Source: Yuukianura sp. NJ FZ-2021 (taxonomy: Eukaryota). Taken from it: a stretch of DNA of 64,000 bases. A model generated the notes under the pieces. It ran no database searches, was not told the origin of the DNA, and saw only the letters and a program-made list of their open reading frames with translations. The first letter of the stretch is position 1. Each line of letters opens with the position of its first letter. Positions 7,619 through 62,397 of this stretch are shown one piece after another. The DNA lies in the NCBI GenBank assembly GCA_046563655.1, contig CM102285.1:13950001-14014000 (forward strand), in the 5' to 3' direction. The position numbers and the translations under genes are program-made.

Positions 7619-8308
7619 ATGAACTTCATTTCTACTGGTGCTGTCATCTTATACGTTCTGCTTACTGCCAAAAATGGTATGATTTTGATTCACGATAAAA
7701 TCTGACATGTTTTGAGATAAAAGATGTAAGATGAAAGATAAAATATTTCTGAGTTGAATTCTGAAGCGTAAATAACTTTCACTTTTTAGCTTCAGTTGCA
7801 GGAGATGGGACGCTTCCAGAAAAAGGTGAAAGTTCTGGAAAATCCGGTGCTGACGTGGTGAACTTACCAGGTGGTGACATGGTAACCTTAGCTGGTGGTG
7901 ACATGGCAACGTTAGCTGGAGGTGACATGGCAACCTTACCTGGTCTGTGCCTGTGTCAAGAGTTTCGGTGTGACAATGGTTCCCGGTGTCTCCACAAATC
8001 CAAGGTTTGTTCAGGAATTCCGGAGTGTCCAAATTCGGAAGATGAGAATTTAGAGCGTTGTGACGCTGCAAAACGGAAGTTGCACAAAGTTCCATGCAGG
8101 TAGAAAATGCAAAGATTTTTGAAAAGTGTTTTTGAAATTTTGATTTTGAATAGAAACTTTTGTTTTTTATTTTTAAAAATGAAGCAAAGACGAATTCAAG
8201 TGCAAGTTTGGCGGGTGCATAGATTTGAAGAAAGTTTGCAACAACGAAATCGATTGTTGGGGAGGAGTGGATGAAGCGACGGATTTTTGCAACTGGGTTA
8301 ATAGTTGA
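7619..8308 (+). CDS. Small secreted protein: signal peptide, GGDM(V/A)TL(A/P) repeats, two LDL-receptor class A domains; exons 7619-7676, 7790-8099, 8185-8308
   Basis: Exon 1 MNFISTGAVILYVLLTAKN is hydrophobic; splices stay in frame; CQEFRCDNGSRCLHKSKVCSGIPECPNSEDE..C and CSKDEFKCKFGGCIDLKKVCNNEIDCWGGVDE...C fit LDLa spacing; AATAAA at 8345. Confidence 0.8.
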
Positions 8309-8386
8309 ATTTTCAAAAATTGCAAACAATTTTGATTTTTTTTAAATAAATTTTATTTTTCTTTTTTTTTTTTGGAGAATCAAGGA

Positions 8387-9055
8387 TTACCGTAAATCCT
8401 TCGTAATTAACTTACACATGATCGGTTTCGGTAAAATCTTACACGTCGAAATTAGGAATTTTGCGAATGAATGTACTTTTGAGTACCGTAAATCTCCAAC
8501 TTTAGCTTCCTTTTTATTCCACCTCCATTTTTGGGCGTACCAACTCCTCAGTGGCGCCAAACAAGCATGGGCAACTTCGTGACTCTTGACATGCGCATAA
8601 CACGAAATCAGGAATCCATTGACCACTAACGTTCCACTTTTGGTCAACGGAGCAAACGCACCTTGCAGAACTTCCCGCTTAACGTTTGTCACTGCTGCAG
8701 AGATGACAGTGTTGTCATTTTTCTGAATTCTGATCAAAGAGTCACCGATTTTGACATTTTTCGCTGCCAATGTTTGTCCACTGTCCAGAAATAGTAAGTG
8801 TTCTGGAGAAATCAACAGCCGATGATGACCTTTGACCTCAATTGACACAAATTCTACCAAAGGTTCTGGATCATAGTGGATGTAGGTGTAAAACTTCGTT
8901 GAAGAAACTGTTGGCGCCAATTTCTGCTTGAGGCTTCTACTTGGAAACTTTACGGTAACAACGTCGTCGAATTCCCGCAGTTCCGGAATTTTCTGGACAC
9001 CGGATTTCAGAGTCCAGACTTCCGCTGACGACGGGAAACAACAACAAATACACAT
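8387..9055 (-). CDS. Stand-alone Hedgehog-type Hint + sterol-recognition (Hog) domain protein 1, with a 5-aa N-terminal peptide MCICC
   Basis: CFPSSAEV start, block B ISPEHLLF, AKNVKIGD, GAFAPLTKSGTLVVNGFLISCYA, SRR-like HEVAHACLAPLR...HSFAKFL; single open 222-aa frame. Confidence 0.92.
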   Translation of the reverse strand: MCICCCFPSSAEVWTLKSGVQKIPELREFDDVVTVKFPSRSLKQKLAPTVSSTKFYTYIHYDPEPLVEFVSIEVKGHHRLLISPEHLLFLDSGQTLAAKNVKIGDSLIRIQKNDNTVISAAVTNVKREVLQGAFAPLTKSGTLVVNGFLISCYAHVKSHEVAHACLAPLRSWYAQKWRWNKKEAKVGDLRYSKVHSFAKFLISTCKILPKPIMCKLITKDLR

Positions 9056-9234
9056 CGGAATCTTGTGGCCGCTATGAAATGACTTGCCAAGGTCAAATCA
9101 AGAATTTCGTAAAAGTAAATTTACGAATTTACAGCGCGTAAATTTACGAATTTACGAAATACGTCGCACAGAGTTAAAGGTACAGAAATTTAGCACTAGG
9201 ATTATTCACTGTTGACGGTTGAGTTTGGATTTTG

Positions 9235-9287
9235 GAATGAGGCCAGTTACTCAATATGTTCGTGTCTTTTATACCGGAAGGAACATT
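9235..9287 (-). promoter_or_regulatory. Core promoter of Hog gene 1: ATGTTCC motif, TATAAAAG (TATA 9273-9267), initiator TCATTC (9240-9235)
   Basis: Motifs read on the minus strand; same architecture as the paralogue; no ATG between the initiator and 9055. Confidence 0.65.
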
Positions 9288-10174
9288 TACACGGATGATT
9301 ACACTTTTTACAAGTAAGCATGCTACATACTACGCAATTGAAGCTAATTCAAGTATGAGTAATCGAGATAAGTTGAATAACTAATTATTGTTTGTAAGTT
9401 AAAAAATTATTAACATTAATCACGTTTAACCGGCTCTCACAGTTTTGATGTTTATGGTATAACCAAACGCAAAACAAAGTGAAGATTTTCCTGTTTACAA
9501 TTTTTCGTTATACGAAATATTAGTTAAAATTTTTCACCGTAAATTTTTGTAATTTTTGTCTATTGCGACAAAAAGTTGCGCAACTTCTGTAAGTACCATC
9601 CGCGTCTAATACGAGCTGAAAAATCACGAAGTTGAAAATATTTCCAACAATTCTTGAGTAGTTTAGTTTGAAAATCCATTGACGTAGGCGTGCGAAAATT
9701 TTTCAATAATTAAAAAGTCCGTTTTGCTTTTACGCCGTACGTGATCAATTATTTTGAAAAGTTGCACGAAACAGTGAAATTTTGCCATAGGTCAGCGAAA
9801 GGTTTCCAATTTCAAAATTCAAAAATTCAAAAAATTTCGAACAATGAGGTTATGCAAAATGCATTTTCTGGTCTTCTTGAGAGAAATCCTTAAGACCATC
9901 GGAATTCCCCTTTGTGTTTAAAGTTTAGTTAAATTAATTGTTCAAAACAAACTAATTCTGAGAGCAATTTTAAAAGCAAAACTGTTTGTTTCAAAAGACA
10001 TGAAATCGAAATGTGAAAAAATTTCCAGGTTTTCGTGAAATGAAATGACGTATACGTGAGAATCAGGTGAAGTTTAATTCCTTTTTCGTGTTTATTTGAA
10101 TTACTGAACAAAATTTAATTGTTCTAAACCAAACAATTTCTCAGTAGTTCTGTAACTCTTGTGTCTTTTTATTA

Positions 10175-10855
10175 TTATGCCCGCGTAATTGTGAGAACTT
10201 TCTCCGTAATCGGGCTGGGAATGACCTTGGACGTGGAAAGCAAAAACTTTGCAAATCCGTTCATTTTGCTGAACTTCAAATTTTCCTTGTTTTTGGCAAA
10301 TTTCAGGGAATTCCTTGGCGAAGGTGACCTCATGGAGTACCACGTTCGGAGTGGAGCCATGGCGGCATGAGCAAGGTCATGACTCTTGACATGCGCATAA
10401 CACGAAACCAGGAATCCATTGACAATCAGAGTTCCACTTTTGGTCAACGGTGCAAACACGCCTTTCAGCACTTTCTTGCCAATGTTAGTCACGGTAACCG
10501 GGACAACGGAGTAGTCCTGTTCCTTGACCTTCAGCAGAATGTCACCGACCTTCACGTTTTTGGCGGGAACTGGTCGTCCATTTGCCTGGAACAGAAGATG
10601 TTCCGAGGAAATCAAAAGGTCATGACCTTCTTCTGTTCCAATTGACACGAATTCTGCTGTAACTTCTGGGTCATAGTGTAGATAAGTGTAGAATTTAGTT
10701 GCGGAGACTGTTGCTGAAGATGAAGTCTTGTTTTGACCTAGGTCAATTGTCAAGATTCGCTCAAATGGTCTCAGTTCTGGAATTTTCTGGACACCGCTTT
10801 TGAGTGTCCAGACTTCAGCTGACGATGGAAAGCAAAATGGTAGACAGAGACACAT
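10175..10855 (-). CDS. Stand-alone Hedgehog-type Hint + sterol-recognition (Hog) domain protein 2, with a 7-aa N-terminal peptide MCLCLPF
   Basis: CFPSSAEV, ISSEHLLF, AKNVKVGD, GVFAPLTKSGTLIVNGFLVSCYA, HDLAHAAMAPLR; CAACAATG start context; clear paralogue of 8387-9055. Confidence 0.92.
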   Translation of the reverse strand: MCLCLPFCFPSSAEVWTLKSGVQKIPELRPFERILTIDLGQNKTSSSATVSATKFYTYLHYDPEVTAEFVSIGTEEGHDLLISSEHLLFQANGRPVPAKNVKVGDILLKVKEQDYSVVPVTVTNIGKKVLKGVFAPLTKSGTLIVNGFLVSCYAHVKSHDLAHAAMAPLRTWYSMRSPSPRNSLKFAKNKENLKFSKMNGFAKFLLSTSKVIPSPITEKVLTITRA

Positions 10856-10959
10856 TGTTGAATGACGCCGGTTTTGTTCAAGTTGTAAAATCTAAAATTT
10901 TGAAACTTTAAAATTTCGAAAATGGCTACAAAATGCTGTGTTTCAGTTACAAGTTTTAT

Positions 10960-11009
10960 GAATGAGCGTGATGTTTAAACGGTTCACAACTTTTATAGAA
11001 AGGGAACAT
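10960..11009 (-). promoter_or_regulatory. Core promoter of Hog gene 2: ATGTTCC motif, TATAAAAG (TATA 10997-10991), initiator TCATTC (10965-10960)
   Basis: Same motif order and near-identical spacing as gene 1; no ATG between the initiator and 10855. Confidence 0.65.
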
Positions 11010-15617: not shown

Positions 15618-16347
15618 TTCTGTGTTCCCATTGCCGGAGTGGCCATCGGTCTTGTTATTCTTTTTACAGAAATAAATCTTGACACTCCAGTCGGCTCTTT
15701 GCTGTGGTTCCTTTATATTTACTTAAGTTCGTAGAGTTAATTACTTAGCTTTTAGACTAGAAGATATCAGTAAGCTTTAATTGTTAAATTAATTAACAAA
15801 TTAAATTAATCAAATGGTTTGGTTTAATATTTTATTTCCCGTTTGCCCAACTATGGTGAGGGTGGAACTTCGGCGGGAGTCGCGGATTTGAAAAATTGAA
15901 TATTTTGGTTGCGAATTTTATTTTCTTGTTTTGAAAAAAAAGAACATAAGAAAAGAAAGTGACACACTGGTACTGGACGCTGGACGGGACGTGGACACTT
16001 TTGGACAGTCATATCATCAATTAACAATTGATCAATTTAAGTAGAAAAGATTTAGTATCGCTGTTAATTAGTTAAAACGTGAGTCCATAATATCAACATC
16101 CAGTTTAGGTAAGGGGACGAACTATTAAAAGAAATAATATTCAAACAAAATAAGCTGGTAAGAAAAAAATTACGACAAATTTAAACCTTTTGAAAGGCGA
16201 CAAATTAACGATTTTGTTTTTCGGCAGGCCTATTTTCATTTTGGAAGTGCGTGAGTCGAATGACGTCCCCAGTGTCTGGTTTACTGTGGAACCGGAACGT
16301 ATGAACAGCAACGCTACATTATCTCCAGCAAAGGAATAACTGCGACG

Positions 16348-19768
<3,421 letters not shown>

Positions 19769-29043: not shown

Positions 29044-32000
29044 CTAAGGGATTTTGGGCGCTGTGGTGGTGGTGTTGGTTGTGTTATCTTGTTCTAGCAA
29101 CTCCTTCCAATCAACATCTTCATCTTCAATGTCCACCGACGCTGCTCCAGCGATTCCAACAATCGCTGGAACTTCTGTTGCTTCCGACGTCTGTGATTCC
29201 AGTCCCTCTTCAATTTCAGACAGCAGTTCTTCCTTACTGAACTCCTCGAGCACGGCGGACTCCAGTTTTTCAAATTCGTTGAGTGAGGATGACGATGAAG
29301 CGGGTCTTTTGAACTTGTCTTCATTTGTACTGCCTTCAAGGGACCCCTTGGGGGTACTTGAAATCAACTCTTCCTCAATATCTTCCAATTGGTGAAGATG
29401 ACTGGACAAGAGCATGTTGCCATCTTCGTTTGGTTCGTCAGCGTCTCCAGAAATGCGGGACTCAAAAGTCGATTCTTGGTGGGACACGCCACAAGCCGCT
29501 GAAGTTCCAGCGATTGACGAAGTCAAGGTGACTCCTCCAGTGGCAGAAATTGTGCCAAGGTCACAGGTAATTCCTTTGGAAAATCCACCTAAGGTTGGTT
29601 CGTCTTCGCCTAACGTTGATTGGCTCTCAGTTAAACTCCCGGGAGTTTGATACTCCGAGCTGGAAATGAAGGCTAACGTTGACGAATCGGAAGATTTCGG
29701 ACGATCTTCGCTGGTCAGACGAGGACTACGCTCTTCACGGGCAGTAAAAAATGAAACGGTTGACGACGATCCGACCACTCCACAGGCTGAAGACTGTTTC
29801 GAATCAGTCGAAACCTGAATTTTCAAAAAAGATTTCAAAATTTCGAAAATTTTCAAATTCAGTTATTTTTGAAAAGTTTTGACCTTGGGTGTTGGATCGT
29901 CAGTCGGTGTCACTCCAGCGCTCGACGCTTCAGACGCCGCTTGCAGTCTTTCCTCCACGCGTTCCTCAATTTCTTCAATAAGTTGAACTGCTGCCGTCGT
30001 GGCCAAGTTTTTGTCGTCTTCACGGTTCGGTTCGTCCGGTTCGGAATCGACCGTCGGTTCGGGTTTCGGTTTTTCTAGGTTTAGTCTCATTGGTATTGGC
30101 GGTGCTTCGATAGACTCCTCATCTTCATCTGAAATCGCTGCTTCGTCGGCTTCCAGCTCCGTTTGGCCCACGGGGGACACCGAAGTAGCCCGACTGCTGT
30201 CTTCATCAAAAGCGGCTTTGAATCGAGATTCAGGAAACTGATCTTGACCTTTGACATGGAAAAAACACGACAAACATGGAAAAATGGTAATTATTTTGAA
30301 ATTTTGAAACTTTTTTTGAAATTTTATTTTCCCAAGGAAAAAAGAGAGAAAGGTAAGAGAGAGAGGTAAAGAATAAGAAAATTGACTAAAAAGGAAAATA
30401 ATAAAGCGAAAGCTCTATTCGGCTGCTTGCGGTGGGATTCGGCTGGAGGAGGAAGTGTCGAGACTTGACAGCGCTTCAGCGATGATTCCCTCAACAATAT
30501 GATTGGCAACTGCGCCCTCCTGACCAGATTCGACACTGATTTCATCATCATCATCATCATCACGATGATCATCATCATCATCATCACTTTCCTGCATCAT
30601 TGCCCGATGATGATCTGCCCAACTTCTCTTTTCCATAGTATCTGTAAATTTAGCCCAAATTAACCCAAATTTTAACTAAATCCCAACAAAAATCCAATTT
30701 TTAGCCCAACAACTACTGGATGCAGCAGTTAGCAGCAAACATGCCCGGGCGGATTCAGGTTTGTTAGAACACAATCCATAGTTAACTTAATTTTCAACAC
30801 AGTTTGTTAATTTGAACACATTTAAGAGTTAATTTTCACAAATTAGTATCGTAGTTAAGTTAGTTGCGACGAAGAGACATGCAGCGATTCGTTTGAAAGT
30901 TAGTAGTTGTGTTAAATTGTGCGTTTCTGGACTTATAGTTGGTAAGACAAATTCGGATTCTTGAAATCTGTTAGACTAATCAATTCCATTACTAAGCAAA
31001 GTACTTGAGTTATGGTTAACGATTTGCAAATGCTTGGATGCTGCCAAAGTATGGAAATCAGCCGACCTGGTTCTGATTCTGAGCTGGAAGTTGAACGGGA
31101 TCTGTGTTCAGCGTCACGGGTATCGTCGGACTCGGGTTCTTCCGGAAACTTTCCGGAAATTTGTTCCGTTTGGTCGGTATGCCTCGAATCTTTGTCTTCT
31201 TTAGGCTTTGAATCTGCCGGTTCGTCAGCCTTGGTCAAACGTTCTGGTTCCGCGTTCAAATCGCTGCGGGCTTCTGAGGTAATAGGAATTTCATGTTCCT
31301 CGTGCTCTGACTCTGTACTGGAAGCATTTTGCGTTTCAGCCGGTTTCAGCCAATCAAGTTGCTTCTCTGGTTCTGGACTGGAGTGAGATTCCGGTTCGGC
31401 TTCGGCTGGAGTAAGCCAATCAAGCTGCTTCTCTGGTTCTGGACTTGGCTGAGTTGGGGGTGGAGCTTCGGTTGGAGTTAGCCAATCAAGTTGCTTCTCT
31501 GGTTCTGGTTCTGGACTTGAGTGAGATGGCGCTTCGGCTTGAGTTGGTGTTAGCCAATCCAGTTGTTTTTCTTCCTCTGGACTTGATTGTGCTGGTGCCT
31601 CTGCTGGTGTTAGCCAGTCAAGTTGTTTTTCTGGTTCTATTTCTGGACTGGACTGAGTTGGTACTTCAGATTCGGCTGGGCTTAGCCACTCAAGCTGCTT
31701 TTCTGGTTCCGGACTTGGTGGTTCGGCTGGCTTCAACCAATCAAGTTGTTTTTCTGGTTCTGGACTTGGCTGAGTTGGCGTTTCGGCTTCAGTTGGTATT
31801 AGCCAATCCAGTTTCTCTGAATTGGGCTCCAAGTGAACATCTTCTGCTGGACTTCGTGGAGGAGCCTCTTCAGTTTCTCCTTTGATTTCTTGCCGCTGCT
31901 CAGATTCTGTTTCCTTTCCAGTTTGTAACAAATCTTCATCTTTTTCAATTTCCTCCGGACGAATCTCATTGGGTGGCTGTGCATTGAGATCTTCTAAACT

Positions 32001-35000
32001 CTTTTGTTCTTTTACGTAACTCTCAATTTCATCTTCCAGTGCATTTTCAACTTCCTCTTGAGTTGGGTGGTCTTGTAGCACTGGAGCTGCTTTCTCTTTC
32101 AAACCATTTTGGCTAGCTACCGCTACCGCTGCAAGGTTTTCGCCAACTCTTGCTTGTTTCACTTTTTCTGGAACAGCGCCCGTTTCTGAGAATAGCCCAT
32201 TGTTTAAAATTTGTTTCAACATTTTATACAATAATACATATATTTACACTGTAACATAGTTTATAACATGCAATTCACTAATCTATTAACGTATACACAC
32301 GTACAGGTCTAAGTCCGAAACTCGTCAATTGATACTTCCCAGATTAATTTGACCTCAAACCTAATTGACACTAATTTTGACAACCAATTTCGTTGGCTGA
32401 TGAAACAACAAGGGGCACTTTTAGTAATTTACTTTTAAACACCAACTGCCAACATTTCCAGTAGTACTGCCAACATTTTCAGTAGTACTGCCAACATTTT
32501 CAATAGTACTGCCAACATTTCCTAAAGTTTACCAATCTTCGGTGTTTGTTTACCGTAATTGTTCTAATAAGTGGTGCAGGGTGCATAAATAGTTTTTGCA
32601 AATCAAAAGAAAATTGAATTGGGAAGAAAATGGAGAAAAACTTTGAGTTTTAAAAGTTTTAAAGCCAAGACATGGACACAAACACAAATCGTCCACCGAA
32701 GGGAGGTGTCCACGGTCCGTGGTCCACTCGTGACATGGCCAGTGACCGGACATGGCCACCCAAAAGTGGACAGTAGAAGGTAGTACAACGACACTTTTGT
32801 TTCATTTACGATGTATCCACTCACCAGAGTCCGTGTTAATGTTGTTGAGTATTTCCTGCTCAAAGGCGAAGGGCTCGGTATCTGGAGGGACCAAAAACAA
32901 AAGAGGAGTAAAAAGAAGCTCCATTCGACAAGGTGAGGTCAAAGGTCAAGTGAGGTCAAGTTTCTAAAGGACCAATGGGAGAAGCAGTCTCTCAGCAGAA
33001 GCAAGCTTAGGCATAACAAGCATTTAACACTAACTTAACACTCTCTCATAAGTTAATCTTACCATCAGCAAAACCCGGGAGACTTCGGACTGTTCCTGGA
33101 CGAAGGTCAAAGGTCAAAGTTAAGCTAAACTTGAAACGATTTGCGAGGCACAGAATAAAATTCCACTAATACTGTAAATATTTCAACTTTTTCAGACTAA
33201 GTTTTGCTTATTTTTTCTATTTGGCACTACTCCGACTCTTGTTGTTCCGGACAGTCTCCGGATGCTGGATTTCAGAAAGTTTTGACAGTATAATTAAACT
33301 GGAGGATCGGAGAGAGGACTTCGACAGTATTGGAGGGGAAGGATTGTGTTCTCTGCGTGGATTGACTCATACCGCCCTCTGACGAACTTGATAGCACAGG
33401 GCTGGGAAGGTCCGCTGCCGATCCGACTGAAGATCCAGAGCTAGAACGAGCCGAATCGGCCGATCCGGAGGCAACCGACGCCGATCCGGAATCCGTAGTT
33501 ACGACAGATTCGGCAGAACATGGTGTTTCGTCGGTTCCACGCGGCGGTGAAAATGTTGGTTGCAGTTGAACGACAAACTGCGACTGCTTGGCGACCGCTG
33601 GCGACACAGAGGCTCTCTCTTCTTCTTCAGCTGACGACGACGACTCTTCCGTTGTCCAGGTAACTTCTTCTCTCTTTTCCACCGTGACACGCTGATGTAT
33701 CAGTTCCGGATCGGCATCTTCGTCACTCGTTTCCAAAATAGGTTCCAAATGTTCTCCGCTCAACTGAACTTGTGACTCTCTCCGATGTGCTTCCAGCATT
33801 ACCGTGTCCTCGGTAAACGTAAAAGCCCGAACTTCGTCCGATCCTTCCGAACCATCTTCGTCCAGCTCCAGCGGCAAGTCATCTTCATCCCAACTCCGGC
33901 TTAGGCTAACTTCAGTCTCTTCTTCATCCACCGCCACGGCCACCGCGGCGGTGCCAACAGTCTCTCTCGGCAGGTCATCAGTGTCAACACTCTTCGTTCC
34001 CGTGTCCACTTGAGTCCCCACACACACATCGACATGGATGCCCTGAATTTCTAGGACAGGGCTGCTCCCTTTGTCCACATAAGTGGACCCTTTACCCTCA
34101 TCTACGAGCAGCGTCTGACTAGAAACGCTGATTTCCGACACTTCAGCTTCGGTTACTTCTTCGGGTTCTTCCGGCGGTTGCGGAGTGTTCGGAAACGATA
34201 AACCGAATCCCGTGTCTCCGGTTGAGTCCAGCGACGGAGTCATGGACGCCGCTGTAACCAAAGGAACCTTGTCACATTCTACCGAATCGGCCTTTCCGAA
34301 CCGAAACCGAATGTCTACGAACCGGTACGTTCCGGTACAGGGCTTATCTCTGCTTATCCCAAAAATTCCTAACCAAATGCATCCAACGAGCAACCGCAAA
34401 GCAACAAAATACGACGCAACGCCCACAGTAACAAACACAAACTCCGTCAAAGTAAGAAAAACCAAATAAAAATCTAAAATCACAGAATTTCATAAATTTT
34501 AAAACATCAAAGGAACACAAGTTTTCGAAATTTTGAAAAAAGGTGTAACAAGTGTCGCGTCAGATCAACAACTAAAAGGTACAATAAGATGAAATAAGAC
34601 TAAAAAAAAACGATAAAATGTAAGTAAACGAAAGCAAACCGATGAAGCAAACAGCATTTTGAGAGACAGTCTCCACAATCACACTTGGGGAGATACGGGG
34701 ATGTTGAAATTTTGAAAAATTCAAAAATTTTGAAAAAAAAAAATTCAAAAAACTTCGTTCTTACGTTGCTGGACATCCTTCTCTTCCGGACCATACTTGA
34801 CTTCGTCCGTTTCATAGGAAGTGGTCATGGGGCTGAATGAAATGCTGGCTTGTTTGGGTACTTCTACTTGTGACACGTCTTCAATTGACTCTGAGTCCTT
34901 CATGATGTCCTCTTCGTCATAAGATACGTTCCTCCCCTTCTCGGTTTTCGTTGACTCTATTTGTGTTTTTGCTATGATTTGCTCCTCCAGATCAGTCACT

Positions 35001-47396: not shown

Positions 47397-49498
47397 TCAG
47401 TATCTGTCGTTTACCAAGTAAGGTTTGATGTCTACTTGGCCATGGAACGTATTCAAAACGTTGACACACGCATCACTTGGTTCGTACGCATCGTATGTGC
47501 TGGTCAAAATTTCGATCTTGTCCAGTTGTGGAATCTGTTTGAGAGCCGTCAGGTGAATGACCGCCAACACAATCGACGCCGGAGTGTTTGCGAATTTTAG
47601 CGTTTTCAAATCTGGATTTTCAAAAAATCAGAAATCAGTTTATCAAAAATTCATAAAAAATCAAAAACGAGTTTAAAAATTTGAAACATACTGCACAAGT
47701 TCCCAAGTTTTGGACGAGCTGGACCGTCACCACGGTCGAGATTAGTTTCAGCTTGTTCCAAATTGGATGGAAGGATCATTTCCAATGAAGAGTCTTTGTT
47801 CAGAATTGGCCGAATCCCACCGGTAATCTCCTCCCACCAAACAGTCACCAAATCATCATTGAAACTAAAAACATACGGGCCTCTGTAATTGTAGTCGTCG
47901 CCATCCACTTCTTCATTGTCGTCCGTGCGATCATTTTCTACAATATGATCATTCTCTCCAATTTCGTCATCACTACTGACGTCGTTGTCATGAATCCCAT
48001 CATTGTCGTCATTGTCTTCAAAGTCATCAATAATGTCATCCCGATCTCGATCCAATCGTAGACCCTGGAACGTGACCTTGAGCTGTGTCAAGCTCAACAT
48101 GTTGGTCAACACAGGGCCCAGCAGAGCATCAATTCCAGTCACCATGTCCAATTTCGTCACGTTTGGGAATTTCGTTGACCAATCGTATGTTGGCACCGTC
48201 GCTGGAATTGGAAATGGTAGTTGCTCAATCAGTTCTGGGTGTCCATCAATCACAAGTTCTTGGACATTGGTAAAGACTTGGTCAGGATTTAATTGGTTTC
48301 CGTGTGGACCAATCACCAACTTCCGAAGAGATGGAACCTGACCTTGTGAAATCAACGGTGTCATTTCAAAAATCGCTGGACGATCTTCTTCATCTTCATC
48401 GATCCGATAGCCCCGCATCGTGAATCCAAAGTCCAATTCCGTCAAATACGACATTTCAGACGGCAGAGTCAGTGGGATGTTTGGTCCCCAGGAGATCAAC
48501 TTGAGTTTGGTCATGCGCGGAGACTGTGTCAGTTTCTGGATCCATTCGGAAATGAAATTATTGCGTCGGGCAACCATGGCGGCTTTTGGTTCAAACATAT
48601 CTTGTGGTTCAAGTATCAAGTACTTTGGTTTGAGATCTGAACGCAACAGTTCCCGAAGCAGGTAGTTTCTATTTTCCTCCGGTTCTTCGTTCAGAACGAC
48701 TTCGAGCCTCCCAAGGTCAACAGATCCGAACCTTTGAAAAAATTCACGAACGGCAGAGCGATTGGTGGTGTACTGTTTTAACGTAAGGTTGCCAGTACGC
48801 AAATTGGGGCATTTCTTGACAATTTCATTCAGCAAGGGAATGATGGTGGTGTTAACGCTTGCGTCAAAGTGTTCCAAATTTTCAAACTGTTGTAATTCAG
48901 CAACAGGAATTGCGTTGCGTTCACGAAAACGTAGGTGAGGTCGACCGTAAATATTATCCTCTTCGACCGACAATTTGACCAGATTTGGAAAATTGGTCAA
49001 AAATGTCTTTACCTTCGCCTGCATTTGATCATTAGCTTGACGCATACTGGATTCCGCACTGCTCCGAGTACGTAGACAACAGAATCCGTCGCCAGTCGTG
49101 ACGTGAATCTGGAGGGATTGTACGCTTGCGCCGTGCACCCCGGCGAATCTTTGAATGAGATCCAAAGCAATGCGCATGAGCTTGACGTCAACAGTGGCGA
49201 AAGAATAGAAATTTGACGTCGCTGGCAAGGGTTCCGGAAAGACACGAATGAAGTTAGTGATTTGATCGCTGGTGAAGAATTTTACGACGCATTTTTTGCT
49301 GCGTCGAATGACGTGGTAGGCTTCATTTTCCCAGTCTTTGTTGACAAGGCGTGCAGTTAACTGATCAGGAAATGGCAAACGAGCGATGACCTCTCGCAGA
49401 ATGAGACAATCTAGCATCTAGAACAGAAACGATCTTGTGTGACATTGTTCGCTGTGGTACGATAGTATACAATTCGTTACCTTTACGTACGACTCCAT
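47397..49498 (-). CDS. F-box/LRR-like protein, paralogue A; exons 49498-49481, 49417-47692, 47611-47397
   Basis: N-terminal F-box-like LILREVIARLPFPDQLTARLVNKDWENEA; degenerate LRRs (FPNLVKLSV, CPNLRT, VPSLRKLVI, FPNVTKLDM); acidic insert; in-frame GT-AG introns. Confidence 0.75.
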
Positions 49499-50271: not shown

Positions 50272-52389
50272 TCAGTCTTCGTTGTAGTTGAACCCGTCGT
50301 TTACCAAGTAAGGTTTGATTTCTACTTGGCCATGGAACGTATTCAAAACGTTAACACAAGTTTCAGCTGGTTCATACGCATCGTATGTGCTGGTCAAAAT
50401 TTCGATCTTGTCCAATTGTGGAATCTGTTTGAGAGCCGTCAGGTGAATGACCGCCAACACAATCGAGGCGGGCGTGTTTGCGAATTTTAGCGTTTTCAAA
50501 TCTGGAATTTCAAAAAATGAGAAATCAGTTTTATCAAAAATTCATAAAAAATCAAAAACGAGTTTTAAAATTTGAAACATACTGCACAAGTTCCCAAGTT
50601 TCGGACGAGCTGGACCGTCACCACGGCCGAGATCAGTTTCAGCGTGTGCCAAATTGGATGGAATCATCATTTCCAATGGAGAGTCTTTTTTGAGAATTGG
50701 CCGAATCCCACCGGTAATCTCGTCCCACCAAACAGTCACCAAATCATCATTGAAACTAAAAACAATCGGGTCTCTGTAGTCGTCGTCATCCTCTTCATCA
50801 TTGTCGTCCATGTGAGCATTGCCTTCAATGTGTTCATTGTCTTCAATTTCATCATTGTCATCACTACTGACATCATTGTCACCAAAGCCATCGTCATCAT
50901 TATCATCAATGTCATCATTGTCGTCAATGTCATCCCGATCTCGAAACAATCTTCGATCCAATCTGAGACCCTGGAACGTGACCTTGAGGTCAGTCAATGT
51001 CAACATGTTGGTCAACACTGGACTTAGCAGAGCATCAATTCCAGTCACCATGTCCAATTTCGTCACGTTTGGGAATTTCGTTGACCAATCGTATGTTGGC
51101 AGAGTCATTGGAAGTGGAGATGGCAGTTGCTCAATCAGTTCTCGGTGTCCATCAATCACAAGTTCTTGGACATTGGTAAAGATTTCTTGTGGATTCAATT
51201 CGTTTCCCTGTGGACCAATCACCAACTTCCGAAGAGATGGAACCTGACCGTGTGAAATCAATGGTGTCATTTCAAAAATCGCTGGACGATAATCATCGTT
51301 TGAAGAATACATTCGATAGCCCCGCATCGTGAATCCAAAGTCCAATTCCGTCAAATACGACATTTGAGATGGCAGGGTGAGAGGTATCTTTGGTCCCCAG
51401 GAGAACAACTTGAGTTTGGTCATGCGTGGAGACTGTGTCAGTTTCTGGATCCATTCGGAAATGAAATTATTGCGTCGGGCAACCATCGAGGCTTTTGGTT
51501 CCCACATCATGCGTGGTTGAAGCATCAAGTACTTTGGTTTCAGATTTGAAAGTAGCAGTTCCCGAAGCAGGTTGTTTCTTTTTTCCTCCGACATGTTCAG
51601 AACGATTTCGAGCTTCCCAAGGTCAATAGATCCCAACTTTTGAAAGAATTCACGAACGACAGAGCGATTGGTCGTGTACTGTTTTAACGTCAGATTTCCA
51701 GTACGCAGATTGGGACATTTCTTGACAATTTCATTCAGCAATGGAATGATGTTAGTGTTAACGCTTGCGTCAAATTGTTCCAAATTTTCGAATTGTTGTA
51801 ATTCAGCAACAGGAATTGCGGTTTTTTCACATAGGTAAGTTCGATCCTCTTCGACCGACAATTTGACCAGTTTTTTAAAATTGTTCAAAAATGTCTTCAC
51901 CTTCGCCTGCATTTGATCATTAGCTCGACGGTTACTGGATTGTGCACTGCTCCAAGTACGTTTACAACCGAATCCGTCGCCAGTCGTGACGTGAATCTGA
52001 AGGAATTGTACGCTTGTGCCGTGCCCCTCTCCGAATTTTTGAAGGAGATCCAAAGCAATGCGCATGAGCTTGACGTCAAAAGTGGCGAAAGAATAGAAAT
52101 TAGACGTCGCTGCTGGCAATGGTTCCGGAAAGACACGAATGAAGTCAGTGATTCGTCCGAGGGTGAAGAATTTTACGACGCATTTTTTGCTGCGTCGAAT
52201 GACATGGTAGGCTTCATTTTCCCAGTCTTTGTTGACAAGGCGTGCAGTCAGCTGATCAGGAAATGGCAAAAGAGCGATGACCTCTCGCAGAAGGAGACAA
52301 TCCAGAATCTAAAACAGAAACGATTTGTGTTGCCTTGTTCGCTATAGCACTAATAGTATATAATCCGTTACCTTTGAGTATGACTCCAT
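50272..52389 (-). CDS. F-box/LRR-like protein, paralogue B (tandem duplicate of A); exons 52389-52372, 52308-50583, about 50501-50272
   Basis: Highly similar to paralogue A in protein, introns and flanks. Confidence 0.75.
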
Positions 52390-57538: not shown

Positions 57539-60500
57539 ATGGACCATAGACATGCGCACCACAACCATAGCCACTGTCACCATCACAACCAGCAACAACT
57601 ACCTCCTCCTCTGCCACCATTTGACCGGGTAATTGCTTAATTATTCAACTAATTAATTAATTGTCACTGAAATACCCAAAATGTAAGCTAAAGCTGTCAA
57701 AATTTTGATTGTGGTGGCCTGTGGATTTAAAAACAAACGGAAAATACCTTGTGCCAATTTCTTGTTTTCTTTTTTTAACCCCGTAAAATTCGCATGTACT
57801 TGACAGATTTGTGGCAACTGTCAAATTTTTCTTCCGTGTTTGTATAAAAAAAGTGCAGTAAGATGGATTTTGATGTTAAAAGATTAATATCCCGAAGCTG
57901 CGAAATTACATTTTTACCGCAATGACTTTAATTTGTTGGACGGTTCCACTTGGTTGACAGTCAATTTCCTACTAACCTTCAAAACATTTACAATCAGCAT
58001 CCAACGATCCGTTCAATTTTTAAAACCTTAACATTTGGACACTTTAGTTTTCATTTTTTCATACAAATGTAACACAACGAACTTAATTTTAATCTTTAAA
58101 CGCAAAATGACGCTCATTAAGGATTCGATTCAAGAGGAAGATCGTCTCCCATCCCTGATTTCTCACTTTCTTCAAAATTTCAGTTTTGAATTTGTGTCAA
58201 AAATTTTGACACAAAATTTGACCATGAAAACCAGAAAACTGAAAACTTGAATGTTTAAAATTCTAGAATTTTTTTTTTAGATATTCGAAGATTCGAACCG
58301 CATATAGTTGGCTTGCTAGAAAAAGTTTGAAAACCCTAATTGTTGATATTCATTTTACACTGAGATTTTGCATGGAATGTTTGAAGTTTGTAAGTTTTAA
58401 AATGAATCAAGTTTTGAATGGTTTTGTAAGGTAATAATGAGGTTATAGAAAATTTGTCAAAATTTTGAAAACTTTCTTTTAAATTTTGAAATGTGACGGA
58501 ATCTACCTTCTTTTCAGTTTAAATTTTTTTAAAATGTTGACCAAACTGGATCAAATTTTGGAAATTGCCATAACTTGGCGATTTTTTGCGTAAATTGGGT
58601 TAGGAATTCCGCGTGTTCCTGTGTGCCAATTTTTGTGTTTCCTGTGCCATGTCCATCCTTCCGGCACTTTTTTTATATGTTCAGAATGTGGGATACAATT
58701 GGATAGTTTTTCAAGGTGTAAAAAAAGTTTAAGTAGCTCAACTGAAGGGTAAACACTCACAAAAGTATGAACAAACGGTAATTTACGGCGTGCTTTGAGG
58801 TAATCCTCAACATTTTTTTTGCAAAAGTAGTTTATTCTGCTCCTTTGTCACATGTCAGAATTAAAAAAGACAATGTAATTCTGTTTTAAAAGTCCCACTG
58901 TGGAAAAATTTCACATGAATTGTTCTAAATTTTTACGTCATTTTACACTTAACACTTATACGCTCCACCACCGTTCCACCTTCGCCCCACCACAAAGCCC
59001 CACTTTCAATACGGGGAACTCAACTCCGCAACCTCAAAATCCATGGAACCATCACACACTTACATTTCTTTACAATTCACACTTTTCTTTGCAAAATTCA
59101 AACAAAATTCACACACATTTTTACAAATTCTACAAAATGCCAATTCTTTAATAATTCTGCTATTCAAAAACTCGAATTTCTGTGCTTCATGTGCCTACGT
59201 CATTTTTCAATAAAGAAATATTTCAGCAATAACTAAACTTTTACTAATAGAAATAAATAAATAAAACTAAACTTAAATAAAAAGTAAAAGTTATTAAATC
59301 TTTAGATTCATTTAAATACAACATTTGAGCAAACGGACAAATGTTCAAGAACTGCCACCTAAAGTTATTTATGAACATGAATGTTGAAAGTTTTTAATTT
59401 TTTTTTAGCATGGTGGTTTCCCAAGACGAATTTTCCCGCCATTTTCATCGACGAGTTCCAGTAGTTCGACTGATGGCGACATTCGTGTCAACAGCAAATG
59501 TTCAATGCATCGAATCCGCTGTGCTCTGATGTGCTGCGGAATTGTTTTAGTTCTGTTTGGAGCAATTGCTGGCATTTATATTACATGTACGTTTTCAAAA
59601 AGAACAGCGAATTTTTCAAAACACTTCAAAAACTTGGGATTTTTCAAAAATGTTTCTTTCAGATCAAATGCTAAATATTTCTCCAGCGATGGAACAGCTT
59701 TTTAGAGGTTCGTTTCAAATTGTTCAGGGAGATACGTTTAGGCAGTCCCTGATGAATCCATCGTCAGACGACTTCAGAGACACTGCAAAAAAGTACAAAG
59801 GAGCAATCGTAAGTTGCAAAAAATTCTGAAAATTTTGAAATCTTGCATTTTTTTTAATTTTTTTGCAAAGTGAAGTTAAATTTTTCTGGTTCCAGGATTC
59901 CATTTACTCGGAAAGCGTTCTCAGAACTGTTTTCCTGGGTTCAGAAATTTTGGCCTTTAGTGGGTAAGCGCAAGCGATTTTCAGTGTTAAGAATTTTTGA
60001 AAAATTTTGAAAAAAATCTTGTGTTAAAAACGTTTTGTCTAAACTTTGAAGGTTTGACAGAGGGGTGCTTACTGTTCAGTTTAATGTCAATGTCAATACG
60101 AATTTAATCCGAGTAGACGCGGGAGATTTATTTATTACGCTCGCTGAGCGCGTAAGGAGTGCCAAAGGAATTTTGTCTCCCCTCAACGTCACGATTGACG
60201 AAAAATCAATTGTCATACAAGGTAAAAAAAAAATAAAAACTCAAAAATTTAACATCTATCCAAAAACTTTAGACTTCTGTTAAAAATTTTCTACCAAAAA
60301 TACAAAATTTTAGAACGGAACATGGAATTTTTTTACCTTCCGTCATCAACAGACCGCTCAAATTCAAACACAAATTCTCCAACAGATCAAATCATGCTGG
60401 ACAACACTCTGTCCAGGTCAAATGTCACCACTCTTCAGCCATTCCCCACTGCATACCCCACGTTCCCCACGACCTTTGACCCCGTACCATGTGACCCCAT

Positions 60501-62397
60501 CGAAATCGACTTCTGCACCGAATTCAAATCCAGTACATTCCAGGAACAAAGGTCATTGACCCCCAGCATTTTAGCTCAAATGCGCCTAGTAGTTGCTTCT
60601 CGATGTCACCCCTTTGCAGCCCACTTTTTATGTTCCTGGGGCGTGGCCTGTGAAGGGCCCCTCCCTTGTGTAGACTACTGCCAAGAATTCCTGTCTAACT
60701 GCGCCGCAGTACTTCCGAGTGACCTCAAAGGTCAAATCAAATGTGAAGAACGACCGTCATGGCAGGGGTCATCAGGGTCATGTCTACCTAAACCTGGGTG
60801 TGTCGAGAACCTGTACAGGGCAGGTCAAGGTCAAAGAGTTTGTGACGGAGTGATGGACTGCAGTGACTTCTCGGATGAAATCAAATGCCCTTACTGCAAA
60901 CCTGGACACTTCCACTGCGGATCTGGACGAAATTGTATCTCTCCGGACAAAAAATGTGAGTTTAAAAAAGTTGACCTTTGACATTTGATATCGATTTTTG
61001 ACCTTGAACTTTGACCTTTCTTATAGGTGATGGGAAGAAGGATTGTCCAAACGGGTCAGACGAAAAGGCCTGTTTGACCTTGGCCCCTTCAGCGGAAGCT
61101 GCAGGCTATGTTCACCAATATTTCAACGAAGGTTTCATTTTCGTCCATGACCAAGGACGACTCGGGAAACTTTGTGTCGAGCGAAACGATACTGCGCCAG
61201 CATTTTGGCGCGTCGAACAACAAGGACTATTGCAAAACATTGGATCCTCGGCATGCGAACTTCTTGGATTCAGAAAAGTGGCTTTCGTCCGTGTCCAGTC
61301 TGACGTTGAGCCACCTCCAGGCGTAACCCCACCGTATGTCAGAATCCATGACCCCGGATCTTCTTCTGAAGTGACATTCACTGCTGGGCAATGTCCTACT
61401 AGGAAAGTACTTTATGTTGGATGCAACCACCTAGGCAAGGCGCTTGTAATCAAAAGTTTTGCATTTCAATTAATTGATTAACTTAATCGATTGATGATTA
61501 ATCGAATTAATCAGAGTGCGGACAACGACCGGCTTACTTGGACAAGAAGACGAACTTGGTCAGTCACGGAGACTATCCTTGGCATGCCATTTTGCTCAAA
61601 AATGAAAAACACGTTTGCGACGCAACGCTGATAACGTCACAGTGGCTGGTGACGACGCTAGAATGTTTTCGTGGTTCGGAAACCAAGGCCAAGTGGACAG
61701 TCCATTTCGGACGAGTGCGCATGAGCAGTGCCTCACCGTGGCAGCAAGAGCGCAGGATCATCGGAATGGTAATTTTCCAAATTTTGAAAAATTCAAAATT
61801 TCAAATTTTTGAAAATGTTTCTCTTAGGTCAAATCTCCTTTGGGCGATAACTTAGTTTTGATCAAAATGGCTTCGCCAGTGATTTTCTCCGACTTTGCCC
61901 GACATATTTGTTTGCCGGAAGAGCCCGAAGGTGGAATTCGGCACGGTCTGCCACCGTGGGGTCTCCGACCGTCCAAAATCTGTGTTCGGCTGGGCTGGAA
62001 CAAACAAGGTTAGCCTTGACCTAGTTGAGCTTTGACCTTTATGTGTTGACCTTTGACCTATTTTGTTGCAGATGAGGTGGTTGAGACCAGGATGCACGAA
62101 GTTGGACCAGAACTGTGTCCACCGATATCTTCTCCCTGGTTTCCGAACATCACTCGACCTCCGCTGTGTCTAGAAAATACTTTGCCAGGAAAAGACTGTT
62201 TACGTGAAGTTCGGATTCTGCCGGGAGCTCCCCTGTTTTGTCAAAATGAAGACACGAAGGAGTGGGTGTTGAGTGGAATTGCTCCAGGTCAAGGTCACCC
62301 CAAATGTGGGATCGAGAGGTACAGGGTGGCTGCGGTGGGTGGCTCCACAGAGTGGATTCTCAAAACAGTCGAAGTTCTCTCTCATAACACACCGTAA
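57539..62397 (+). CDS. Corin-like type II membrane mosaic protein (TM, SEA, Frizzled CRD, 2x LDLa, SRCR, trypsin-like domain lacking catalytic residues)
   Basis: TM LMCCGIVLVLFGAIAGIYI; SEA-like FRGSFQIVQG; CRD; CDGVMDCSDFSDE and CDGKKDCPNGSDE; LECGQRP; PWHAILLKNEKHVCDATLITSQWLVTTLECF; first exon 57539-57628 less certain. Confidence 0.82.

Follow-up and report, generated by a model that had tools for sequence, protein, structure and literature searches.

Two intronless genes of Yuukianura sp. NJ FZ-2021 encode Hedgehog-type Hint proteins preceded by a leader of a few cysteine-rich residues

The 64,000-nucleotide stretch of DNA analysed here (the window) contains two minus-strand genes, A and B, whose products resemble the autoprocessing part of Hedgehog and begin only a few residues before the catalytic cysteine (Table 1). 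What could a Hedgehog-type Hint domain do with so short an N-terminal partner? A preliminary description of the locus had suggested that the leaders are cyclised head to tail, an N-terminal cysteine attacking the thioester formed by the Hint domain.

Table 1. Positions of genes A and B, their parts and neighbouring features in the window
Feature	Position	Strand	Basis
Gene A, intronless CDS, 222 aa + stop	8387..9055	minus	ORF + Pfam PF01079
Gene A parts: leader MCICC, Hint module, SRR-like tail	8387..9055	minus	
Gene A leader, Met-Cys-Ile-Cys-Cys	9041..9055	minus	sequence read + alignments to Hedgehog
Gene A catalytic Cys codon	9038-9040	minus	directly after leader
Gene A codon equivalent to His60	8876-8878	minus	alignment
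Gene A SRR-like C-terminal region	8390-8593	minus	equivalent of gene B region
Gene A AATAAA, ~30 nt past stop	8352..8357	minus	read from sequence
Gene A putative core promoter: TATAAAAG, 25 bases, Inr-like TCATTC	9235..9273	minus	pattern search
Gene B, intronless CDS, 226 aa + stop	10175..10855	minus	ORF + Pfam PF01079
Gene B parts: leader MCLCLPF, Hint module, SRR-like tail	10175..10855	minus	
Gene B leader, Met-Cys-Leu-Cys-Leu-Pro-Phe	10835..10855	minus	sequence read
Gene B catalytic Cys codon (C8)	10832-10834	minus	aligned to SHH C198
Gene B His60 codon CAC, at Hedgehog general-base Asp46/Asp303 position	10676-10678	minus	phmmer vs 7e2i_G, 6td6_B
Gene B SRR-like C-terminal region, residues ~155-226	10178..10393	minus	Hedgehog tail alignment
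Gene B AATAAA, ~80 nt past stop	10091..10096	minus	read from sequence
Gene B putative core promoter: TATAAAAG, 24 bases, TCATTC	10960..10997	minus	pattern search
LDL-receptor class A exon, convergent with gene A, synteny marker	7765..8103	plus	Pfam PF00057

Both proteins matched Pfam profile PF01079 far above its cut-off of 29.7 bits, gene A with 107.6 bits (E 8.9e-31; residues 5-201 on profile positions 12-204 of 213) and gene B with 125.1 bits (E 3.8e-36). An AlphaFold model of the gene B product had a mean pLDDT of 80.7, rising above 90 over the core. Foldseek matched it to the Hedgehog D46H structure 6tyy (E 1.7e-11, TM 0.86) and to 1at0 (E 4.1e-11, TM 0.87); inteins, among them 3nzm, ranked after these two. 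The intein profile PF14890 reached 16.3 bits with gene A, against a cut-off of 35.8, and did not match gene B. The Hint core is followed in both proteins by a tail resembling the sterol-recognition region (SRR), not by an extein. Neither gene matched PF01085, the Hedge signalling domain, and a cargo domain is absent. These results confirm that genes A and B encode Hedgehog-type Hint/Hog proteins.

The cysteine of the CFP motif in both proteins corresponds, in phmmer alignments, to the catalytic Cys198 of human Sonic hedgehog (Cys1 in what follows). On the minus strand the junction of gene A reads ATG TGT ATT TGT TGT / TGT TTC CCG (positions 9055-9041, then 9040 onwards), encoding MCICC/CFPSS, and that of gene B reads ATG TGT CTC TGT CTA CCA TTT / TGC TTT CCA (leader 10855-10835, Hint from 10834), encoding MCLCLPF/CFPSS. 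The leaders are thus 5-7 residues long including the initiator Met. These codons bear out two observations of the preliminary description, that both frames open with Met-Cys and that the stubs end in Cys (gene A) or Phe (gene B) where Hedgehog has Gly.

Cys1 was invariant in an alignment of 16 sequences (A2), in all 13 core relatives and in 196 of 260 aligned sequences, the remainder being N-terminal fragments. The Thr-x-x-H motif is S-x-x-H in both window genes, which is a conservative change: Ser/Thr-x-x-H was found in 13 of 13 core relatives, and among the 196 sequences the His was present in every one and the first position was Ser (81) or Thr (114) in 195. Both genes also have SCYA, the cysteine of which (C143) is reported in a 2025 paper to be required for Hedgehog processing; it is Cys in nine of the 13 core relatives and Ser in four. 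Where Hedgehog has its general base Asp46, both genes have His, as do all sequences of A2 (H60) and all 13 core relatives. This residue was rejected as a hallmark of short leaders, being the majority state among non-Hedgehog matches (120 of the 196 sequences; 72 have Asp, and these are Hedgehog-like). Gene B fits the D46H crystal sequence slightly better than the wild type (E 1.4e-7 vs 2.4e-6), and the engineered Asp-to-His swap in Hedgehog is described as keeping cholesterolysis while widening sterol tolerance (PMC9163320). The tails align with those of Hedgehog proteins through APLR.W and the G-I/V-H-x-Y/F-A motif region. The HWY-type motif is H-S-F in gene A and I-H-x-Y/F in relatives; gene B has N-G-F where H-x-F/Y is expected, its His being lost, and helices 159-225 of its tail are predicted at low confidence (pLDDT 43-70).

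The window genes share with HhC, the C-terminal autoprocessing domain of Hedgehog (Hint plus sterol-recognition region; 1AT0, 6TYY), the Pfam family, the fold, Cys1, S/T-x-x-H and SCYA, and their tail can be aligned with its SRR. They differ from Hedgehog in having neither a Hedge domain nor a signal peptide, in the residue before Cys1, and in a base His, as in the engineered D46H/D303H proteins, where natural Hedgehog has Asp. The catalytic apparatus is kept in both genes, and the proteins may still cleave themselves.

In a rival account the gene models are wrong: the Met would be internal, and a signal peptide and a conventional secreted cargo would be encoded in unseen upstream exons, as in other Hog proteins. 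The well-studied Hog proteins are all secreted, and acceptor-like sequences are found just 5′ of the ATG in L002 (TTCTTGTAG/AG ATG) and L003, two of the loci compared, and as TTTTAG at -41 in gene B. Against this, the stop-to-stop frames (8387..9097 for gene A and 10175..10891 for gene B) leave only 14 and 12 codons ahead of the Met and contain no other ATG, and in six of six loci an in-frame stop lies 3-14 codons 5′ of the Met, again with no other ATG. The start ATG has a purine at -3 in five of the six. Met opens the leader in all 16 sequences of A2, MAFFT placing these residues in differing columns, and many independent gene calls begin at the same Met. Comparison of the loci revealed no conserved upstream exon or common upstream coding segment; the paralogues and the orthologue share no upstream peptide, and the sole upstream match was one of 18 aa between L002 and L004 (E 0.006-0.009).

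A TATA+Inr element also lies 108-183 nt 5′ of the two ATGs, giving predicted 5′UTRs of ~183 nt for gene A and ~108 nt for gene B, both free of ATG. The pattern TATAAAAG-N24/25-TCATTC, which was built after the fact from the two sites themselves, matched twice in 64 kb against 0.01 expected, only upstream of genes A and B, and was found at none of 10 fetched loci; TATAAAAG without TCATTC is present at -134 in L001 and at -99 in L004. An Rfam scan of the window gave zero matches, and so no spliced-leader or other RNA clue. We consider unseen exons improbable; judged by their sequence context, the Met-Cys ATGs are very probably the true translation starts. A candidate signal peptide within the protein itself, MCLCLPFCFPSSA, was rejected. 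It is hydrophobic and has small residues at its end, but is just 13 residues long, its cleavage would take away the conserved catalytic Cys, relatives such as MG/CFPPEAEV lack the hydrophobic stretch, and the segment forms the first strand of the fold in the AlphaFold model.

Both genes are under purifying selection, with a dN/dS of 0.22 between them; on this value and the intact frames, pseudogenes were rejected. Over the first 22 Hint residues, which are identical, there are 9.0 synonymous changes per 16.2 sites and 2.0 non-synonymous changes per 49.8 sites, and the nine synonymous differences inside that stretch led us to reject gene conversion as the source of the identity. A recent retrocopy of a hedgehog 3′ exon was likewise rejected: position 46 is His, not Asp; true hedgehog-exon-like fragments have Asp and end in AAK[ST]GG/CF; and a quick tree grouped the family with long-cargo Hog proteins and not with arthropod Hedgehog, on an unstarred branch with weak support. 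The locus is conserved in another species. Metagenome locus L001 has the same convergent LDL-receptor class A neighbour (PF00057), 60% identical to that of the window over 55 aa (E 2e-23).

Sequence comparison places genes A and B in an unnamed family of leader-only Hog proteins of ~205-225 aa, with leaders of 0-9 residues that are mostly uncharged and rich in Cys. Leader statistics were drawn from 32 His-type relatives whose leaders do not exceed nine residues. Ten of 25 distinct leaders have Cys as their second residue, and in the wider family no other amino acid is as frequent at this position. Of 107 leader residues, 23 (21%) are Cys, whereas Cys accounts for 1.7% of the remaining sequence of these proteins. 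The pattern exceeds chance, although the binomial P of 6e-12 is indicative only, because the sequences share ancestry. D, E, K, R and H are all missing from 21 of 26 distinct leaders. Immediately before Cys1 stands Cys, Phe, Val or Ile, in place of the conserved Gly. A five-member sub-clade of the core group opens with MVFS[IV] and has no leader Cys, and other leaders are MV, MG, MS, MF or M alone (the last in P0039 and P0056). Gly follows the Met in MG/CFP (P0283 and P0321) and in MGICC (P0118). Cys2 is retained in the closest relatives, as MCLCV in the syntenic orthologue and as MCCC, MCF and MC in paralogue-like sequences, though synonymous sites are saturated. The conserved register, M-C-x-C, counts from the N-terminus and not from the junction.

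The cyclisation proposal would have lost its footing had Cys2 not been conserved in homologues; as Cys2 is kept in the closest relatives and is the commonest second residue of the family, it survives on this point. In the proposed route, Met aminopeptidase would expose Cys2, as Met removal before Cys is known to do, the N-terminal Cys would attack the Hint thioester at the C-terminus of the leader, and an S-to-N shift would yield cyclo-CLCLPF, cyclo-CICC or a thiolactone. Acetylation of the N-terminus could block the leader amine, and four-residue all-L rings are strained, which applies to the 12-membered cyclo-CICC. Pro is present in several Cys2 leaders (CLCLPF, CFPI, CFPF, CLPLGIPC). The combination of an N-terminal Cys with an intein thioester is established ligation and cyclisation chemistry according to the review PMC8114279, and an internal thiol, C143, has been reported as an acceptor of the Hedgehog thioester (PMC12054796). 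Engineered intein cyclisation (expressed protein ligation, SICLOPPS) resembles the window genes in bringing an N-terminal Cys and a Hint-type thioester together on one short peptide; it differs in being a laboratory system built on inteins, and a split intein keeps the two ends of the peptide within its active site.

Comparison across the family speaks against the proposal. Cys2 is absent from 15 of the 25 distinct leaders, including those of the MVFS[IV] clade, and some Cys2 leaders are only 1-3 residues long after Met removal (C, CF, CCC), too short for a lactam formed by native chemical ligation. Leader lengths vary from 0 to 8 residues once Met is removed and fit no single ring size. Intramolecular attack would need neither the general-base His nor the SRR-like tail, yet both are conserved, and no natural Hint-driven example was found in open-access papers and preprints. 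The premises of the proposal hold: the Met-Cys starts are very probably genuine, the Hint catalytic residues are intact and Cys2 is kept in the closest relatives. Cyclisation as the common function of the family is nevertheless hard to reconcile with leaders of 0-3 residues, with starts in Val or Gly and with the conservation of base and tail, and we regard it as very unlikely for the window genes, although ring closure of the six-residue CLCLPF stub of gene B is chemically conceivable. The broader idea, in which the Hedgehog-type Hint is a single-turnover peptide cyclase that releases lipophilic cyclic peptides, thiolactones or diketopiperazines, the thioester being attacked after Met removal by the N-terminal Cys or, in two-residue leaders, by the free amine, seems to us remoter still. 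If true, cyclic peptides would here be made by a ribosomal route that has no known natural precedent.

The leader need not be a product at all. The Hog domain itself may function as a sterol-binding or sterol-sensing module, self-cleavage (or Met removal in the M/CFP forms) being only a switch that frees the domain from a membrane tether or exposes its N-terminal Cys. Relatives with leaders of 0-2 residues (M, MC, MF, MG, MS) keep all catalytic residues. Leaders resemble slippage products of the first Hint codons: L004 has an exact TGCTTC TGCTTC, and runs of TGY are present in L002 and gene A. On the tree, short leaders arose repeatedly (10 label changes, at least five of them forced by starred branches). 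On the other hand, the syntenic orthologue shares Met-Cys-[Leu/Ile]-Cys with the window genes although dS is saturated, and this conservation and the strong bias in leader composition argue for selection on the leader itself. No established function of a free Hog domain was found in the open-access literature. We judge this account rather unlikely.

The leader cysteines might also regulate the protein and not anchor it. Substrates of the Cys/Arg N-degron pathway characteristically begin with Met-Cys, and Cys2 might be an oxygen- or NO-sensitive N-degron after Met removal; alternatively, a leader Cys could form a disulfide, or bind a metal with Cys1 and His60, and so gate the acyl shift. Inteins offer a redox-trapped parallel: precursors of this kind that carry a Cys in the N-extein are in the PDB (3nzm, noted above, is one of them), and the review PMC9163320 mentions zinc binding at the active site of Hedgehog. 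The cytosol is reducing, however, the register of the leader cysteines is fixed to the N-terminus instead of the junction, and Cys-free leaders of the MVFS[IV] type exist. In either form a regulatory role appears quite improbable.

Genes A and B are tandem paralogues in an arthropod genome and belong to a leader-only branch of the Hog family. We tentatively prefer, at somewhat less than even confidence, an explanation in which they encode probably cytosolic proteins that cleave themselves with the help of an external, sterol-like nucleophile. Translation would begin at Met-Cys and the protein would be made in the cytosol, because neither a signal peptide nor a cargo domain is present. The 4-6-residue uncharged leader of Cys and hydrophobic residues would most likely act as a lipophilic membrane tether, probably S-acylated. 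The idea of lipidation comes from the Met-Gly and Met-Gly-x-Cys-Cys starts of relatives, which we take to resemble myristoylation and dual-acylation motifs. The Hint domain would carry out the N-to-S acyl shift at the bond between leader and Cys1, and an external nucleophile with a hydroxyl group, bound by the tail and most likely a membrane sterol, would then resolve the thioester, with His60 in the general-base role of the Hedgehog Asp. Two fragments would result, either of which may be the functional product: the free Hog domain, now beginning with Cys, and a tiny, extremely lipophilic peptide, sterol-esterified and possibly acylated.

Hog proteins without a signal peptide have a precedent in GmGIN1 as described by Buerglin (2008, PMC2362128), where the Hog domain is presumably processed inside the cell; that protein differs in its large enzymatic cargo, the window genes having a stub. 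A related architecture was found at metagenome locus L005, which encodes GTPase, MACPF and Hint domains with His at the Asp46 position. Several features count against the preferred explanation. To our knowledge, every Hog protein with proven sterol transfer carries a signal peptide and works in the secretory pathway. Cys1 is not preceded by Gly here, the tail-motif His of gene B is lost and the tail model is of low confidence. Ser replaces the SCYA Cys in some core members, the MVFS[IV] sub-clade offers no leader Cys for acylation, and the M-only relatives may have nothing to transfer after Met removal.

Among the closest known systems are C. elegans hog-1 ('hog-only'), Xiphinema Shog1 and Shog2 and Trichinella Xhog3, in which, in the account of Buerglin (2008, PMC2362128), the N-terminal part is lost or very short, with predicted N-peptides of 15, 25 and 34 residues in the short proteins. 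Signal peptides are described there for the Xiphinema and Trichinella proteins, whose peptides would hence be secreted, whereas the window genes have no signal peptide and only their few Cys-rich residues before Cys1. The cnidarian Hint/Hog genes with novel N-termini and the lophotrochozoan Lophohog are likewise non-Hedgehog Hog genes that exist beside hedgehog, but have sizeable secreted N-terminal domains, and a leader of a few residues is reported for none of them. Neither leader-only Cys-rich Hog proteins nor non-hedgehog Hog genes in arthropods or rotifers were found in open-access papers and preprints. The leader-only branch is an unusual minimal form of the family, undescribed in that literature.

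Hedgehog autoprocessing has hitherto been studied only as the attachment of cholesterol to a sizeable secreted signalling domain. Here the enzyme carries no more than an uncharged Cys-rich stub, apparently free of a signal peptide, and the Asp-to-His base swap engineered in the laboratory occurs naturally. The proteins should be easy to express and test because they are small (~220 aa) and intronless. If they cleave themselves, they would yield a new tiny lipopeptide or cyclic peptide, or else the Hog domain would have a role of its own, for instance in sterol sensing or as a cleavage switch; either outcome, if true, would alter the view of the Hog domain. The finding of these genes would also mean that non-Hedgehog Hog genes occur in arthropods, contrary to the assumption in the 2008 survey (Buerglin 2008, PMC2362128) that hh-related genes were lost there.

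Genes A and B encode an intact Hog enzyme under selection behind a tiny, uncharged, Cys-rich leader (the residues from the initiator Met up to the catalytic Cys1 of the Hint domain), and neither has a signal-peptide-like N-terminus. The leader coordinates and residues in the preliminary description agreed exactly with the minus-strand reading. The two proteins are Hedgehog-type Hint modules, matching PF01079 with E values of 8.9e-31 (107.6 bits) for gene A and 3.8e-36 (125.1 bits) for gene B, against a cut-off of 29.7. They are 55% identical to each other, and no further copies were found in the 64-kb window by tblastn. In phmmer alignments to PDB sequences, Cys8 of gene B fell opposite Cys198 of human Sonic hedgehog, the catalytic residue that opens the autoprocessing domain, and its S-S-E-H and SCYA motifs opposite T-x-x-H and SCYA of Drosophila Hedgehog. 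The AlphaFold model of gene B (mean pLDDT 80.7, core >90) was closest to the Hedgehog Hint domain structures 6tyy and 1at0 (TM 0.86-0.87), with inteins next. The intein splicing profile did not reach its cut-off, and A and B are not inteins. They belong to the Hog family, but they are not Hedgehog, since they lack its Hedge domain, signal peptide, Gly-1 and Asp46.

Features of the window, with a slash at the junction of leader and Hint domain
Feature	Position	Strand	Remarks
Gene A open frame	8387..9097	-	first ATG at 9055; 222 aa; N-terminus MCICC/CFPSSAEVW
Direct copies of TTCGTAAATT(T)	9085-9175	-	several, in predicted 5′UTR of gene A; none comparable in gene B
Gene B open frame	10175..10891	-	first ATG at 10855; 226 aa; N-terminus MCLCLPF/CFPSSAEVW
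Paraplegin (SPG7-type m-AAA protease) exons	16264-18571	+	at most 82% identity with named arthropod proteins
Long exon with Pro/Glu-rich repeats	30933-32243	-	many tandem units containing [TK]PAE
Tandem intronless 588-aa open frames	47651-49417 and 50542-52308	-	closely alike; acidic Asp/Asn-rich tails in both
Cys-rich exons	60253-61481	+	LDL-receptor class A-like motifs

The catalytic residues were compared across the 13 core members of the leader-only group. Cys1 and Ser/Thr-x-x-His are kept in all 13, and the SCYA Cys in nine, with Ser in the other four. All 13 have His where Hedgehog carries its general base (Asp46 in Hint numbering, Asp303 in Drosophila). In the full set of 196 sequences, 120 have His there and 72 have Asp, which makes His the common residue in proteins other than Hedgehog proper. 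Asp303 is described as activating the cholesterol hydroxyl, and the engineered D303H protein (PDB 6TYY) as keeping structure and cholesterolysis while taking sterols that the wild type refuses (both PMC9163320). 6TYY is the top structural match to gene B, and a slightly better sequence match than the wild type. Approximately 70 residues following the Hint core in A and B align with the Hedgehog sterol-recognition region, including an A-P-L-R-x-W stretch; the position of the HWY motif reads H-S-F in A, N-G-F in B and I-H-x-Y/F in relatives. The tail helices are predicted at low confidence in the gene B model.

The Hog gene of metagenome locus L001 shows 51% identity and has the N-terminus MCLCV/CFP. 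An LDL-receptor class A exon lies approximately 300 bases downstream of it on the opposite strand, matching the exon beside gene A (PF00057 in both; 60% identity over 55 aa, E 2e-23). As the same exon adjoins in the matching position, L001 is a positional orthologue from another species. A and B came out as sisters in the tree, with the L001 protein closest to them (SH-aLRT 98); the tandem duplication is therefore younger than the split from L001. Between A and B dS is 1.57, near saturation (saturated against L001), and dN/dS is 0.22. The first 22 Hint residues are identical in the two proteins, yet their codons carry nine synonymous differences, which rule out gene conversion and indicate selection. 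Elsewhere in the window, a fragment of the paraplegin gene (18077-18493) reaches no more than 82% identity with named proteins; the best of these are all from arthropods (a springtail, a mayfly, a cockroach and a locust), which places the window in an arthropod genome. The Cys-rich exons at 60253-61481 may come from a gene like that of the LDLa exon beside gene A. No Pfam match was found in the repeat exon or in the one 588-aa frame scanned (47654-49417).

Several indirect lines of support, all consistent, suggest that the leader Met is the true start. In the two window genes and the four metagenome homologues with DNA, an in-frame stop lies 14, 12, 3, 12, 8 and 4 codons 5′ of the Met respectively, with no ATG between stop and Met in any of the six loci and a purine at -3 in five. 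Met opens the leader in all 16 sequences of a MAFFT alignment, which spreads these Mets over more than one column. Both window genes are preceded, as nothing else in the 64 kb is, by TATAAAAG, then 24-25 bases, then an initiator-like TCATTC; two matches compare with 0.01 expected, for a pattern drawn post hoc from these two sites. From these elements to the start codon it is 108 and 183 nt, free of any earlier ATG, and AATAAA follows the stop in each gene. A wrong or mis-annotated start is quite unlikely, the contrary indication being acceptor-like sequences near the ATG in L002, L003 and gene B. Blastn of 700 bases 5′ of the leader-only genes revealed no common segment, and the sole match in peptide comparisons of up to 4 kb upstream was 18 aa between L002 and L004 (E 0.006-0.009). 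The public gene call for the L001 protein, P0001, runs 20 residues 5′ of the Met-Cys start by taking an in-frame TGA as Trp (L001:551-622); read with the standard code, the TGA ends the frame three codons ahead of the Met.

Homologues were sought with HMMER against 1.8 billion representatives (4473 matches at E<=0.001), and by word-indexed and profile searches (the latter giving 187 matches at E<=1e-10). When 260 sequences were aligned to the family profile, 196 had the catalytic Cys, and 53 of these start with Met at most 20 residues before it. Seventeen of the 53 have Asp at the general-base position and look like last-exon calls of real hedgehog genes, because most end ...AAK[ST]GG/CF. The other 36 have His, and in 30 the leader is at most nine residues. 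Adding P0001 (start taken from L001 in the standard code) and P0002 (start at an internal Met) gave 32 proteins with 26 distinct leaders. These comprise M, MC, MF, MG and MS; MCF and MCCC; the five-residue MCICC, MCLCV, MCLLY, MCFPI, MCFPF, MGICC, MVCCC, MVFSI, MVFSV and MRTGG; MVGFCL, MCLCLPF, MALERGG, MKRPTWH and MSSRFSG, of six or seven; and MGWWIIPL, MPSPASLG, MYTNPRRL and MCLPLGIPC, of eight or nine. D, E, K, R and H are absent from 21 and charged residues present in five. Of the 107 leader residues, 23 are Cys, versus 1.7% of the remainder of the same proteins, and the second residue is Cys in 10 of the 25 leaders that have one; as the sequences share ancestry, the binomial P is only indicative. 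Regulation through the leader Cys, as an N-degron or by redox or metal, is very unlikely to be its role.

In a quick tree, 13 of the short-leader proteins, A and B among them, cluster with a single N-terminal fragment (SH-aLRT 89, not starred), while eight more lie dispersed. The short-leader label changes 10 times, at least five of them forced by starred branches. L004 (2711-2728) reads ATG TGCTTC TGCTTC, so that its leader repeats the two opening Hint codons exactly and in tandem, and TGY codon runs occur in L002 (3001-3015) and gene A. Several leaders resemble products of slippage at the start of the Hint codons, and leader length may thus change through replication slippage.

The preliminary description had proposed that the N-terminal Cys attacks the Hint thioester to give a cyclic leader peptide. 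Such chemistry is established for engineered inteins (PMC8114279), and acceptance of the Hedgehog thioester by an internal thiol is described in PMC12054796. Cys2 proved to be retained by the nearest relatives, and no other residue is as frequent in second place across the family (10 of 25 leaders long enough to have one), so the idea was not refuted on that count, and the six-residue CLCLPF stub of gene B could in principle close. However, Cys2 is absent from 15 of the 25, including an entire sub-clade of the core group, and some Cys2 leaders have just 1-3 residues once Met is removed. Ring size would vary across the family, and the conserved base and tail would serve no need. A four-residue ring, as for the gene A leader, would be strained. 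These sequence comparisons argue against cyclisation as the function of the family, and we regard it as most unlikely.

Known Hog proteins, as far as described by Buerglin (2008; PMC2362128), include a C. elegans 'hog-only' gene, nematode proteins with N-peptides of 15-34 residues once the signal peptide is cleaved, and a fungal protein without signal peptide; loss of hh-related genes in arthropods was assumed there. Lophohog and 'Hint-only' genes are mentioned in a 2022 study of annelids. No description of leader-only, Cys-rich Hog proteins was found in searches of open-access literature. Named records are rare; one is the 213-aa limpet protein P0330, with leader MPDHPCECCDDSCL. Atlas clusters of Hint proteins of approximately 217-225 aa are commonest in rotifers, which is a lead only. 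Locus L005 carries an 880-aa open frame (L005:997-3636, + strand) with a weak AIG1-like GTPase match, a MACPF/perforin domain (E 4e-15) and, at its C-terminus, a Hint module (E 1.3e-32) whose Asp46 position is His; such a Hog with cargo of pore-forming type recalls the fungal GTPase-Hog GmGIN1.

We tentatively propose, as a reading that falls a little short of probable, a cytosolic Hog protein whose leader would be a lipophilic tether, probably S-acylated. The Hint domain would make a thioester at the leader/Cys1 junction. The tail would hold a hydroxyl nucleophile, for which a membrane sterol is the most plausible candidate, and this would resolve the thioester with His60 as base. Relatives P0283 and P0321 start Met-Gly, and P0118 starts Met-Gly-Ile-Cys-Cys, leaders presumably resembling the myristoylation and dual-acylation motifs of Src-family kinases and G-alpha subunits. 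The main weaknesses of this reading are that the -1 residue of A and B is not Gly and that the tail His is missing in gene B; to our knowledge, moreover, sterol transfer is proven only for Hogs of the secretory pathway. Relatives whose leader is a single Met, too, may have nothing to transfer. As an alternative, a switch worked by cleavage, or a role for the Hog domain by itself, is fairly unlikely. A tethered leader with transfer to sterol would explain why base and tail are kept, why Cys can stand anywhere in the leader, why some leaders begin with Gly or are purely hydrophobic and why leader length varies, and would fit either functional product, a sterol-linked stub or a released Hog domain.
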